Below are positions 643-7,109 of a DNA stretch of 7,109 nt, one piece after another; within the stretch, counting starts at the first letter, position 1, and every line of letters starts with the position of its first letter. Source of the stretch: a virus (taxonomy: Duplodnaviria > Heunggongvirae > Uroviricota > Caudoviricetes); IMG/VR virus record IMGVR_UViG_2737471848_000001, positions 1-7,109 of that record, one strand, 5' to 3'. The translations under genes were made by a program, and so were the position numbers. The notes beneath the pieces are model-generated. The model had not been told where the DNA came from. It was given only the letters and a program-made list of their open reading frames with translations, and searched no databases.

Positions 643-1098
643 CTATCTCCCGTGATTCAGGAAGTCGATTAGTTCTTCGCGTGTGGCGCTGTAAAACGTC
701 ACGTCATCCACGCCTTTGAAGTATTTCTTGATGGTTCCTACACGCTTAAGGCCAATCATTGCGCAGTACATCTGACCGTGGCGGAATTTGCGTGCAGCGA
801 ACGATGTGACGCACTGAACGGTGGTGTTAGTCAGAATGTATTTCCAGAACTCCAGCCCGATTTCCTTGCTGAATCCACGAACCTCTGGCAGGTACATGGC
901 GTGGCAATCGAATGTAAGCGGCTGAATCTCCTGATAGTAAACAATGCCGCCAAACTGACCGTGCACGTTAACCTCAAAGTAACGGCATTCAGGCTTGTAA
1001 TCGTATCCATCACCGTTGTTGCTCCCGGCAATAATGTCAGGGTGATTTCCTACTGCTTCTATCAGGTCGATGTTTCGCGTTGGTTTGAACTGAATCAT
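643..1098 (-). CDS. P22 gp14-position protein (head/tail assembly-associated), 151 aa
   Basis: ATG at 1098..1096 overlaps the upstream stop (TAATG); GGAG 7 nt upstream; TAG stop at 645..643. Assigned by gene order between tail needle and gp7 and by size, not by direct sequence recognition. Confidence 0.75.
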   Translation of the reverse strand: MIQFKPTRNIDLIEAVGNHPDIIAGSNNGDGYDYKPECRYFEVNVHGQFGGIVYYQEIQPLTFDCHAMYLPEVRGFSKEIGLEFWKYILTNTTVQCVTSFAARKFRHGQMYCAMIGLKRVGTIKKYFKGVDDVTFYSATREELIDFLNHGR

Positions 1099-1946
1099 TA
1101 CTGCTCCGCGATTATCTTGATGGTTGTGGCAGTAAACGCCGCACCATTTGACTGGATGGTTAACGTACTGCCATTTGTGGCAAGAAATCCGTCTTTATCC
1201 ACGCTGAAGAACGTAGCTAACAGGATGTTGTCGGTTGTTGTCGCCGCATTACGACTGCTAACCAGTGTGTCAGGAACAGAGCCGGAAAAGGTTAGCTGCA
1301 TTGACCTGTTGGCGGTTCCGCTGGGCCACGTCCCGACGATCGACAGCTTGAAGAACAAGGTTTTGTTCTCGTTGAACACAACCATCTTGTTGTTAACGGT
1401 ATCGAAGAATGGCGCTAATGTTCCTGATGACGGCGTGAGCGTTTTCAGCAGACTGACAAGGTTGGTCGGCGCTGTCGGGATGGTTACAGATACGCCAGAG
1501 TAAACAACCTCTGACTTCTTGCGAGTAGTGGCATACTCCAGAGCATCGATGCGAGTTTCATGGTCTGAAAGCGTGTTTTGAATGGCGACAACTTCATCCG
1601 TCAGGTAATCAATATCGTTTTCTGCTGTCGTTAATCGTGAGTCAAGGCTGACTATCGCCGCTTCTGCGTTAGTGATCCTTGTTTCGTGGTCCTGTATCTT
1701 CGCTTCAGCTGATGCCAGTCGAATTTCGTGATCAACCAGAATCACATCCTGCTCATCGTTCCTGACTTGTGCGTCATAAGCGCCCTGTCCGGCCTCGTTG
1801 GCCTTGTTAGCCACGTTACCAACATCAGTGCCCTGTGCGATAACGTAAAGCAGATACGACTGCGAGAAGATATTGCGTGGAAGAACTGATGTATCGAGCC
1901 GCGTAGCTTGGATGATTACCGGCACATTGAGATTCGAATCCGCCAT
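1098..1946 (-). CDS. 26: Tail needle / cell-envelope-penetrating plug protein (P22 gp26 family), 282 aa, with Sf6-like C-terminal knob-type domain
   Basis: N-terminus [43 protein letters not shown] resembles the gp26 N-terminal domain that docks onto gp10; central heptad-like repeats (DHEIRL..DHETRI..DHETRI); C-terminal about 140 aa Ser/Thr-rich beta-type region unlike P22 gp26. ATG overlaps gp10 stop (TAATG), AAGGA SD. Confidence 0.88.
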
Positions 1947-3364
1947 TACTCAATCCTTATCTGGCAGCCAGACAGAGTGACTGGTGACTTCGTGATAACG
2001 CGCAATTTGAAGCCGACATTTTTCCTGATGCGCCCTACTCGTTTCCACAAAACGCGTTTGTCGTAAACGAACGGTTCATTCTGCTCAATCATCTGCTCAC
2101 GTCCGTAATTGATGCCGTCAGTGGTTGCAGAGAGGAACAGTCGGTCGGCGTACTGCGCAACGCCAGTTGACGATTCAACCTCAAGGTCGAAAACTCTGGC
2201 GTTATCTGCTTTGAAGAGTGGAGTAAACAGCAGGTGTTCCTGCTGCTTGTCGTACTGGCTGCTGATATCGAACTGCAATTTCCCGGTCACGGACTCCAGC
2301 TTATCGCCGCACGTTATCTGATTGCCTTCGTAAATGAAGTCGATAGCGCGGTACACATCGTCATACAGGCCTGTTTTCAGCACACACCATTGCGGACCAT
2401 TGGCGCTTGAAGATGCGTCGTAAACAAGAACATGGCGCGGAAGGTGGATAATCAGCAGCTCATGCGCATCAAATCGCAGAGACTCCATCACGCCATCAGC
2501 CAGTTCATCAGCAGTGTAGGAGCGTAGTATTTTCTCAATGCTCGCGCTGGCGATTGGTGATACCTGACCGGAGCCGATGATATACACAGACGGCGCACCT
2601 GTTGCCGGATTGCTGATGAACGCATAAGAATCAGCGAATGGCGTTTTGCAGTAAGTCCCGGCAATACCTTTCTGCACCATCAGCGATGGTTGTGCAACAT
2701 ACAAAGCGGCACCAACGGTGGTTGCACCAGTCAGGGAGAAATATTCAATCGTCGATGAACCAAAGCAGACGATGAAATCTCGCCATGTGCCGATACCGAT
2801 TATTCCGTCAGGCTGTGATTCTGCCCGATATTGTGCGCTGTAGCGGTCAGGATGCGATTCGTCTTCAAGGTCAGTGATAAACCATGAATCGGTGCCGTCT
2901 TTTGACCACGCATAACGCCCACGTAATCGCGTAATGTCGCGGACTGAGCCTAACTCATACTGCGTGAATCCGCTGTCTGCAGGCCAGTTTGAGACGGTTT
3001 TAACCGTGCCATCATAGCGATACTCGACCAGTTGACCATTAACGCCTACAGCCTGAGATGTCCGACCATGAGCCATTGATACGCGACCACTTCCGGAAAC
3101 ATCACCGACTTCGCTTTCGCCCTTATACAGCTTGCCACCACACACGCGATAAACAGCATTCTGCGCCATGTTGTACTCGACGCCTCGTGATACACCGTTC
3201 ACATCAGAACGTTTGGCAATGCCCGGGAATGAGCGAAGATATCCGCTGCTGTTCAGGATTTCTTTGGGTGTAGCCAACATATTCACTGGCAGATAGTCGA
3301 TATAGTCGGCGTTTCGAAAGTCTTTGCCGACACCTTTCATAAGCGGAAGTTGCTGAATCGGCAT
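1946..3364 (-). CDS. 10: Tail accessory factor / tail hub protein (P22 gp10 family), 472 aa
   Basis: 472-aa ORF, same length as P22 gp10 and strongly similar as I recall it (MPIQQLP...); located between gp4 and gp26 homologs; GGGAG SD; stop-start junction TAAATG with gp4. Confidence 0.92.
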
Positions 3365-3865
3365 TTATTCGCTCCCGTTATCGCAAGGTTCCTTCCGGTG
3401 GAAGTAATTCCAACCGTTCCACTTCGCCAACTGATTACCGCTACCAACAGGCATACGGTTTGGATAACCGGACTTACATTTTGCGGCTTTTGCTCTGTCC
3501 ATTGCAGACAGTTTGACGAGTCGCTCTTTCCCGTATCTGGCAGTGGTTATAAGTTTTGCAGACGCTTCCAGCGCATAATCCGGAGCAATGCGGCAGGCAA
3601 GGTTGAAAATGACGGCATTGATAGCGTTATTTGATAAACCGTGTTTATCGCCAGGATCTGGAGCGACATCTGCATCAGCGAAAATGTAGCCAACGTTGAT
3701 ACCTGGTGACGCATCACCGCCAAGCCATTCAGCCATCATCATTTCAAGGTCGTTAACGCCGTCTTCCATAGACTGCGGTTCGACATCGGTTAACGTGGCA
3801 TTTGATGCCACACCGAGCTTACGTAATGCCGCAAGAACTAAATCACCCTTCGTTGTCAGGTTCAT
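3365..3865 (-). CDS. 4: Head completion / tail accessory factor (P22 gp4 family), 166 aa
   Basis: Preferred start ATG 3865..3863 (AAGG upstream) gives 166 aa beginning [33 protein letters not shown], matching the gp4 N-terminus and length. An in-frame upstream ATG at 3928 would give 187 aa. Confidence 0.85.
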
Positions 3866-4067
3866 CTGCTGCCGCCTTAGGTTTTCGACCAGGCTTTTTA
3901 CGCTGTTTTTCTTCTGGCTCTGCAACATCCTTCAAAAGGTCATCAGGATGTGAAAACCAGCCAGCATCCAGATATTCCTGAAGCTCTTCGGCTTTCACGA
4001 TTTCAAAGTCGTATCCAACGCCTTTCCATTTCTTCATGTCTCCATGACGAAAGATCATGTGTGTCAT
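3843..4067 (-). CDS. Small hypothetical protein (74 aa) between coat and gp4; same position as the extra small gene of Sf6-type late operons; function unknown
   Basis: ATG at 4067..4065 with GGAGA 5 nt upstream; acidic body and Lys/Arg/Pro-rich C-terminus ([23 protein letters not shown]); 3' end overlaps the gp4 start by 23 nt. The ORF-track version starts at a GTG at 4115, which I reject. Confidence 0.55.
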
Positions 4068-4079
4068 GCTTGTCTCCAG

Positions 4080-4106
4080 ATAAAAAAGGGAGCCGAAGCT
4101 CCCTCT
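4080..4106 (-). terminator. Rho-independent terminator-like hairpin immediately downstream of the coat gene
   Basis: Minus strand: AGAGGGAGC-TTCG-GCTCCCTTTTTTAT, a GC-rich 6-9 bp stem with a UUCG tetraloop followed by a 6-T run; begins 5 nt after the coat stop codon. Confidence 0.6.
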
Positions 4107-4111
4107 GGTTA

Positions 4112-5407
4112 TCACGCGGTCTGGTTAGGCAGACCAACACCAATTGCCTCTGGTCGTACAGCACATGCTGAATACCACACAGCAATACGGCACTTACCAG
4201 ACAGAGTGTTGATATCACCCTGCGTTGCGAAGATGCCGTTAACACCAATACCAGGAATGCTGAAGGAAGACGTTTTCATGCCAGCAAACAGTTCATGGGT
4301 TACCGGGATCGGCTGAGACAGAAGGCGGATTGAGTCATCAGCCCAGAACACGTTAGCGGTGGTTGTTGCCACGTTCAGAACGTTTACCGGAGTGGTATCA
4401 GCAAGAGAGGTGTTTACGTTAGCGTAAGCCTTCTCTTCTTTTGTCAGTGACGCGTCATCCAGTGCAATCGGTTTCGGCGTGATTTCGATGTGAGTACCAT
4501 CGATCACACGGGTGATTGAGAAAGTAGCATCATCAGTCAGCACGTTCTTCGCCATCTGAGACAGGAATTTCACACCAGTGAAACTGATTTTGTCGCCGCG
4601 CTTAAATCCGGTGGTGGAGGATACGGTCACCGTTGCAACACGGTTGTCGACGTTCTCTTTGTTACCATCGGTATCAAGGGTGTATGCCTGCGGCTTAAAC
4701 TTCTGCGCACCAGAAACAGTTACACCAGTAGCGGTTGACTTGGTAACTGCCGGAAGTTTCGGTGAGCGAAGAATTTCATCAAAGCCAGCAATCTGACGCT
4801 GAATAGTACCGTTGCGATACGCTTCTTCAGGAACGCGCCCGAAGATGTCACCATCTACCAGGTTGCGGCCTGCTTTACGGTAATCGTCAGGGTTCAGGAA
4901 GTAACTGATGCCCATATCGCGGTTTAGCTCACGGGAGAACATCAGGCGCTCTGCATCAGACACAAAATCCCAGCCAGACAGGCCAGTAGATGGACCAATT
5001 GCGCGGGTATCGTGAACAACAAGCGAGCCCATTTCAGTTGCCTGTTTGGCAATCGCTGACTCAATGTTATTCGCCAGTTTTTTGGCGGATGCTTGGATGC
5101 GGCGACGGTAAGAACGCTCATCACGCAGGTCATCTGCACGAAGCTCGAAGAAATCGTTATCCGGATCGCCCATGTTGCATTTCACGGAGAGTTCCAGAAT
5201 CCCGGTTGCGTTGCCAGTTAAATCCCAGCCAGTCTGGGTTGGCGCTTCCTGCTCAACAGGCATCCACACGGTGTTGCTTGAACGCTGCATGGATTCTGCC
5301 GGAGGGGTGTATTTTGTCACTTTTGACGCCATTGGCGTCAGGTTCTGGACGGTTTCGATGATTTCATCCAGAGCATACGTGACCAGTTGACCTTCATTTA
5401 ATGCCAT
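4112..5407 (-). CDS. 5: Major capsid (coat) protein, P22 gp5 type, 431 aa
   Basis: Full-length similarity to P22 coat protein as I recall it (MALNEGQ..., ...[10 protein letters not shown]..., ...[12 protein letters not shown]); AAGGAA SD; start overlaps scaffold stop (TAATG); TGA stop at 4114..4112. Confidence 0.95.
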
Positions 5408-6331: not shown

Positions 6332-7072
6332 TTATTGAGGTGTCTCGGCTACTCCGCCGGAGGGGATTTGAACTTGACGCATAAGATTCGCGAAATCCAT
6401 GCGTTGTGAATGAGTCTGGTCTGCATCTTTAAGAAGCAGCTCAGCGTTAGCACGAGCATCTTTGCTGCGCTGTTGCTGGAATTGACCTACGAGCTTGAGG
6501 TACTCACGCAGTTCTGCCTGCTTGTCGAGGTCCATATTGTTGAAGATTTCCGCAATCTTCGCGGCGTTGAGTTGGTTTTGGGCTTCAACCTTGGCGGCTT
6601 CAACCTGAATCTGCGCCTGTTGGTTCTCTGCCTTGAGCAATTCAGCCTGACCTTGCAGAAGGATACCCTGCGCCTGAATTTGCTCTGCTGATGGCTGCTG
6701 CGGCTGCTGTTGAGCCTGCTGTACCATCTCCATCTCTTCAGGTGTTTCTGGTTTCTTCAGCCCCATCATCACCAGTTGCTTGTTCGCGTACTCTCGCATC
6801 ATCTCGACGCCTTTACCATCAAGCAGCGTGAAGTATTGCAGCATCAGCATCTGGAACTCTGGAGTACCTTGTGGAACCTTGGTGAGTAACTCCTGAATCT
6901 CTGCGCGGTTCTGTTCCTTCATACTCTGGAAGGATGGTCCAACGTCCGTATAGCACTCATAGCGACCGCGAATGTCGTTGAGTGTGACCACATTGCCGGA
7001 CTGGTAATCGACAACTTGCGCATAGAGTTGAACGTCTTTCTCGCTTCCATCTTCAAGTGTCAGCGTTACATG
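6332..7072 (-). CDS. 1: Portal protein (P22 gp1 type), C-terminal portion only; 5' end not present in window
   Basis: Frame open from 7072 to stop TAA at 6334..6332; Gln/Ala/Glu-rich C-terminal region ending ...SGGVAETPQ, consistent with the long C-terminal helical barrel of the P22 portal; directly upstream of scaffold. The ORF-track start at 6991 is an internal GTG, not the real start. Confidence 0.85.
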
Positions 7073-7090
7073 TCACGAACGGTGCAATAG

Positions 7091-7109
7091 CTGTCTCTTA
7101 TACACATCT
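7091..7109. other. Tn5/Nextera mosaic-end adapter sequence (CTGTCTCTTATACACATCT), library artefact at contig end
   Basis: Exact 19-nt match to the reverse complement of the Tn5 mosaic end AGATGTGTATAAGAGACAG at the very end of the window. Confidence 0.9.

Follow-up and report, generated by a model that had tools for sequence, protein, structure and literature searches.

Tail needles nearly identical to the one described here are homotrimers that close the hexameric tail hub of the virion (PMC9728967), and in the tail of the Shigella phage Sf6 the conserved N-terminal helical hairpin of the needle forms a quasi-sixfold plug (PMC9728967). The C-terminal knob is likewise a trimer, with three L-glutamates bound between its subunits; in the knobs of both Sf6 and the E. 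coli prophage HS1 the bound L-glutamate is contacted by residues E146, K200, S248 and D250 (PMC3741392). The shaft of the HS1 needle is 67% identical to that of Sf6, the knob 99% (Leavitt 2013, PMC3741392). Knobs of the Sf6 type, which were described in 2011-2013, were found in 69 of 164 P22-like genomes and differ among themselves by at most 4.9% (Leavitt 2013, PMC3741392).

An intact needle gene in a block of P22-like late genes

The window, by which we mean the whole 7,109-nucleotide stretch of DNA that was analysed, is a single minus-strand block of P22-like morphogenesis genes (Table 1). Its gene order is that of Sf6, HK620 and P22, with the needle gene situated between the gp10 and gp14 homologues. 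A sequence-only reading had placed an open reading frame at positions 1098-1946 and left its strand unstated. The frame is real, and comprises a single intact run of 282 codons plus a stop codon on the minus strand; a plus-strand reading of the same interval was ruled out by its many stop codons. The TAA of the tail hub gene overlaps the ATG of the needle gene and the TAA of the needle gene overlaps the ATG of the gp14 gene, both junctions reading TAATG, as expected for co-translated late genes. (Note that the small ORF between the coat and gp4 genes, called at 74 amino acids in related loci, has a Lys/Pro/Glu-rich tail and corresponds in position to P22 orf69 and Sf6 gene 6; its match to phrog_1175, annotated as 'unknown function', scored 127 bits, and it had no NCBIfam hits.)

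Table 1. Features of the window, with the needle gene and its segments listed first.
Feature	Position	Strand	Basis or remark
Tail needle gene	1098..1946	-	ORF, PDB matches, PF16532, phrog_1030; ortholog of Sf6 gene 9 and P22 gene 26
N-terminal domain, codons 1-70	1737..1946	-	Predicted helical hairpin, plug of the tail hub channel; Sf6/HK620/P22 identity, PDB 8eap_B
Variable coiled-coil shaft cassette, codons 71-124	1575..1736	-	Low identity to Sf6; flanking DNA 93-100% identical
Distal shaft end leading into the knob, codons 125-139	1530..1574	-	13/15 identical to Sf6
Sf6-type C-terminal knob, codons 140-282	1101..1529	-	Sf6 gp9 identity, 3RWN, 4K6B, PF16532, ligand residues
gp7, first 168 codons	134-640	-	PF25688
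gp14 homologue (DUF2824)	643..1098	-	PF11039, 178.6 bits
gp10 / Sf6 gp8 homologue, tail hub	1946..3364	-	PF11134, 1000.7 bits; binding partner of the needle N terminus
gp4 adaptor	3365-3928 (listed ORF)	-	PF11650
Small ORF between coat and gp4 genes	about 3843-4067 (listed as 3843-4115)	-	phrog_1175
Coat, 431 aa	4112-5407	-	
Scaffold, 303 aa	5407-6318	-	
Portal, C-terminal fragment	6332-7081	-	Listed ORF 219 aa

The predicted needle aligns with Sf6 gp9 without a gap, the two proteins being equal in length (282 amino acids) and identical at 243 of 282 positions. Sf6 gene 9 also occupies the same position in its operon; the head genes of the window, in contrast to those of Sf6, are P22/HK620-like (431-aa coat, 303-aa scaffold). 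The PHROGs family phrog_1030, 'tail needle knob', covers the whole protein with a score of 447 bits. The division into an N-terminal domain, a coiled coil and a C-terminal domain that had been proposed from the letters alone was borne out, and the sequence blocks on which it was based could all be located (residues 72-84, 86-98, 128-139, 150-170 and 271-282).

The N-terminal 70 residues are identical to those of Sf6 gp9 (70/70), and match HK620 gp26 at 66 and P22 gp26 at 57 of the 70 positions. (Note that the canonical P22 gp26 of NC_002371 was used as the reference, in place of AB362338, which encodes a 212-aa variant; gene 26 in NC_002371 is 702 nucleotides long, in agreement with the 233 amino acids earlier given for this protein.) The first ~60 residues had been called gp26-like, and 49 of 60 are indeed identical to P22 gp26. 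When all PDB chains were searched, the N-terminal domain matched chain 8eap_B (gp26 N-terminus; E = 1.8e-27), residues 1-144 matched the P22 gp26 structures 2POH, 3C9I and 4ZKP (E about 1e-45), and residues 1-153 matched 5BU5, a 233-aa needle named 'DNA stabilization protein' (E = 9e-48). Moreover, phrog_1219, 'tail needle protein', matches residues 1-146. The virion-binding domain that plugs the tail hub and is common to all P22-like needles is present here.

The C-terminal domain is that of Sf6. Residues 140-282 are identical to Sf6 gp9 at 141 of 143 positions, the two exceptions being A234 and A271, and the four residues that contact L-glutamate in Sf6 are all kept at equal positions. Residues 131-282 match 3RWN ('Gene 9 protein', the Sf6 tail needle knob) with an E value of 3.5e-90 and 150/152 identities, and 4K6B ('HS1 knob domain') with an E value of 1e-89 and 151/152 identities; each of these entries contains three chains. 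The Pfam model PF16532, Phage_tail_NK ('Sf6-type phage tail needle knob'), scored 361.5 bits on the needle with a cut-off of 27. The comparison with the Sf6 knob that the sequence-only reading had proposed was thus decisively positive. The Ser/Thr/Asn-rich character ascribed to this end of the protein was also confirmed by composition counts, these three amino acids making up 35% of residues 140-282 as opposed to 20% in each of the other two segments of the needle. (Weak Pfam hits on the needle, among them DUF4349, Tropomyosin, ATG16 and XhlA, fell below their cut-offs and were set aside as reflecting coiled-coil composition. NCBIfam offered no specific model for the needle, only sub-threshold coiled-coil hits such as SMC and PspA.)

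When compared to the gp26 needles of P22 and HK620 (2POH, 3C9I, 5BU5), the protein shares a homologous plug domain, a heptad shaft, the position of its gene and a presumed role as channel plug, whereas its C-terminal domain is not homologous to theirs; P22-type tips are shorter, the whole protein having 233 amino acids. No homology to the P22-type tip (gp26 residues 141-233) was detected by phmmer, in which alignments to P22 gp26 structures end at residues 137-144 of the needle; with the 233-aa needle 5BU5 the alignment extends to residue 153, and a forced multiple alignment of the C-terminal region with P22 gp26 gave 25 identities at 88 positions. That the C-terminal domain differs from the P22 gp26 tip, as had been noticed beforehand, therefore holds, with alignments to P22-type needles stopping at residues 137-153. 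The particular domain swap at the tip that had been proposed does not, because the gene as a whole is the ortholog of Sf6 gene 9, including the N-terminal domain (70/70), and its product is a standard Sf6-type needle.

The similarities of the needle are not a matter of chance, as phmmer gave E values of 3.5e-90 (knob) and 4.5e-45 (P22 gp26, residues 1-144). As far as can be read from sequence, every defining feature of an Sf6-type needle is present and that of a P22-type tip is absent. We regard it as almost certain that this is the tail needle gene of a P22-like (Lederbergvirus) prophage and that its product is a standard needle of the Sf6 type.

State and distribution of the prophage

The prophage in the window is decayed and defective, with IS elements truncating gene 7 and splitting the portal gene. 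The end of an IS3-family element occupies bases 1-136; of the roughly 230 codons of gene 7 it leaves the first 168, and its terminal TGA supplies the stop codon. At the other end, the portal gene is cut at about position 7081, where homology to other prophages stops, and bases 7082-7090 match DNA adjoining an IS21-family element by which the portal gene is interrupted in two other loci, L007 and L012. This element also cuts the needle gene off from what lies upstream in the late operon. Assembly GCA_037957285.1 (L012) contains exact copies of both junction sequences; the portal/IS21-family junction is present in L007 and the gp7/IS3-family junction in a further locus, L008.

The window closes with 19 bases (7091-7109) that read CTGTCTCTTATACACATCT and are not present at that position in L012. 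We take CTGTCTCTTATACACATCT to be the Nextera/Tn5 mosaic-end adapter. Since the otherwise identical locus L012 continues differently there, we read these bases as an untrimmed adapter at the contig end, and so as an artefact of assembly and not biology.

Given this disruption by IS elements, the needle gene of the window probably does not belong to an inducible phage but survives as an intact relic. On balance we lean towards a gene that is non-functional and has stayed intact only because the IS-mediated decay is recent, so that no needle would be assembled into particles. The truncation of gene 7 by an IS3-family end argues for this, as do the reduction of the portal gene to a 219-residue C-terminal fragment next to the IS21-family element and the recurrence of the same arrangement in L007 and L012, two loci whose tail and ejection genes are absent or scrambled. 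Full-length reading frames are nevertheless kept by all six genes that lie between the IS3-family and IS21-family insertions. Moreover, more than 100 E. coli genomes contain small P22 remnants with a needle gene of the Sf6 type (PMC3741392), which could also mean that the gene is retained. Note that the relic reading concerns only the present state of the gene and is compatible with its identity as an Sf6-type needle.

The same needle occurs in prophages that appear to be whole. An exact-sequence look-up placed the 282-aa needle in 150 blocks of a public assembly collection, and it is found, together with P22-type head genes, in prophages that seem to be intact (loci L005, L006 and L009). In L005 the identical needle is accompanied by head genes of the P22 type (721-aa portal, 431-aa coat) and in L010 by Sf6-like ones (Terminase_3, 696-aa portal, 423-aa coat), which indicates that the tail hub/needle block is exchanged independently of the head module, as a mosaic module among P22-like phages.

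Among complete E. coli genomes in RefSeq, 314 of 5426 contain a match to the needle gene with at least 80% coverage. The 25 matches listed are all full-length, have nucleotide identities of 95.6-96.8% and are annotated 'tail needle knob protein'. The window had no match above about 97% among the complete RefSeq E. coli genomes; it probably derives from a lineage of Escherichia or Shigella that is rich in IS elements.

According to a statement made in 2013, P22-like phages with an Sf6-type knob infect only Escherichia or Shigella (PMC3741392). Needles whose match extends through the knob region were also observed in phages listed for Klebsiella (phiKp_30, 84%), Salmonella (S9-5, 62.5%), Aeromonas (4_4512, 56%) and Shewanella (ZP9, 46%), a host range wider than that of the 2013 statement.

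The coiled-coil shaft and its borders

The middle of the needle departs from Sf6. Residues 71-124 are identical to Sf6 gp9 at only 19 of 54 positions and to P22 gp26 at 22 of 52, whereas residues 125-139, which lead into the knob, are identical to Sf6 gp9 at 13 of 15 positions and to P22 gp26 at 2 of 10; residues 131-139 fall inside the crystallised constructs of both 3RWN and 4K6B. The same borders are seen in the DNA, where identity to Sf6 gene 9 is about 98% over nucleotides 1-200 of the gene, about 40-58% in 45-nucleotide windows between nucleotides about 210 and 370, and 84-100%, mostly above 90% (about 94%), from about nucleotide 375 to the end. Overall, the shaft segment 71-124 is about 50% identical to that of Sf6 at the DNA level. 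The description of the coiled coil as P22-type consequently has to be given up, as this segment, with 22/52 identities to P22 and 19/54 to Sf6, is a mosaic segment carrying an allele of its own.

The shaft has the length of the Sf6 shaft and its heptad register is unbroken: a single hydrophobic a/d register is the best one in every 14-residue window from residue about 74 to 139. The heptad-like blocks noticed earlier are part of this pattern, the DHExRI blocks being spaced 14 and 42 residues apart, in phase with the heptads. By analogy, residues 71-124 may be taken to form a trimeric coiled coil, an assignment that draws on the heptad pattern and on the homology of the flanking segments. Relative to Sf6, the needle is a three-block mosaic in which the shaft cassette was swapped for another allele of equal length and the tip left unchanged.

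Variable shafts joined to a conserved knob are a feature that the needle shares with HS1 (4K6B; 151/152 over the knob). The full-length HS1 needle was represented in our comparisons by the 317-aa needle of phage Gally, the HS1 needle likewise having 317 amino acids (PMC3741392). The N-terminal residues 1-70 and the knob of the Gally needle are nearly identical to those of the needle here, and between them lies a third shaft sequence. In this 317-aa HS1/Gally type the shaft is 35 residues longer and has 16 heptads instead of 11 (PMC3741392), and the shaft in the window matches neither this type nor Sf6.

The shaft allele itself occurs in 60 of the 5426 complete E. coli genomes, at 90-99% nucleotide identity, and all eight carrier records listed are annotated 'tail needle knob protein'. 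Among deposited phage genomes the shaft is found at 100% only in an unannotated fragment record, OR844601, the next best being 45-56% identical.

A record of P22 strain MSU (AB362338.2; 1458-2096, minus strand, of the extracted locus) encodes a needle of 212 amino acids, with a shaft that is shorter than, and different from, that of the canonical 233-aa gp26. Since the gp26 of NC_002371 differs from this needle, even records that bear the name P22 do not agree in their shaft cassettes.

We considered whether the cassette of residues 71-124 might be functionally significant, for example by setting the length or stiffness of the needle or by allowing it to escape an exclusion system, as opposed to neutral mosaic variation. 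The sharp breakpoints, at which nucleotide identity passes from about 98% to about 50% and back to about 94%, would fit such a role, and so would the existence of several shaft alleles (Sf6; HS1/Gally, with 35 additional residues; the needle here) beside one nearly invariant knob and of the different, shorter shaft in the P22 record AB362338. However, the length and heptad register of the shaft equal those of Sf6, for which reason its geometry should be unchanged. Moreover, the needle shaft in the Sf6 tail is flexible and poorly ordered (PMC9728967), and a hybrid P22 needle that contains Sf6 codons 69-282, and thus most of the shaft as well as the knob, works normally (PMC3741392). We therefore think a functional role for the cassette unlikely. 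Slightly more doubtful still is selection on the shaft itself, for instance for evading an exclusion factor, encoded by a prophage or by the host, that would recognise the exposed shaft; such selection might explain why the cassette is about 65% diverged, of equal length and sharply bordered; a related long shot is that use by the host retains intact needle genes in decayed P22-like remnants.

Needle function and the significance of the tip

By analogy with Sf6 and P22, three copies of the needle would form one fibre. In this fibre, residues 1-70 would make up the helical-hairpin plug that closes the channel of the hexameric tail hub (the gp10 homologue) and retains the packaged DNA, the shaft (residues about 71-139) would be a trimeric coiled coil about 10-11 heptads long, and residues 140-282 would form a trimeric knob that binds L-glutamate between its subunits. 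Upon infection, the needle would be released and the channel would open. It is from the literature on near-identical proteins that we infer trimer formation, the plug function, release at infection and an effect on the rate of ejection; that the protein would be a homotrimer is suggested by its identity of about 99% to knob constructs with three chains and by cryo-EM of the Sf6 tail.

Replacing the tip with a foldon results in slower K+ release and slower DNA delivery, mutants of the glutamate-contacting residues have no plaque phenotype, and P22 hybrids carrying the knobs of Sf6 or HS1 infect Salmonella normally (PMC3741392). Because the hybrid P22 still infects Salmonella normally, the knob gives no host species specificity in the laboratory. 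As for the effect on host-envelope interaction that the sequence-only reading had put forward as a possible consequence of a domain swap, a role in host specificity was tested by experiment and not found, knob-swapped P22 infecting Salmonella normally (PMC3741392). The best-supported function for the needle, on analogy with these proteins, would be that of a channel plug and modulator of ejection rate.

That the gene might instead be a new chimera, in which a P22-type needle is fused to a previously undescribed tip domain with its own receptor specificity, can be given practically no credence: the C-terminal 140 residues do indeed fail to align with P22 gp26, even the forced alignment yielding few identities, but the domain is nearly identical to that of Sf6 gp9 and its PF16532 score lies far above the cut-off, so that the matches to 3RWN/4K6B and to this model refute the proposal, and furthermore the knob type is the one described in 2011-2013 from so many P22-like genomes, whose transfer into P22 left the infected host species unchanged (PMC3741392).

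The standard Sf6-type needle encoded here is of a type that is already known, and variation of the shaft beside a conserved knob has been described for HS1 (Leavitt 2013, PMC3741392). Structural, genetic and survey work has documented the Sf6-type knob as well as the variability of the shaft. The main value of the present analysis lies in the correct annotation of the locus, and its results are a firm assignment of the gene, the exact mosaic borders of its shaft allele and the recognition of the contig as an IS-decayed prophage.
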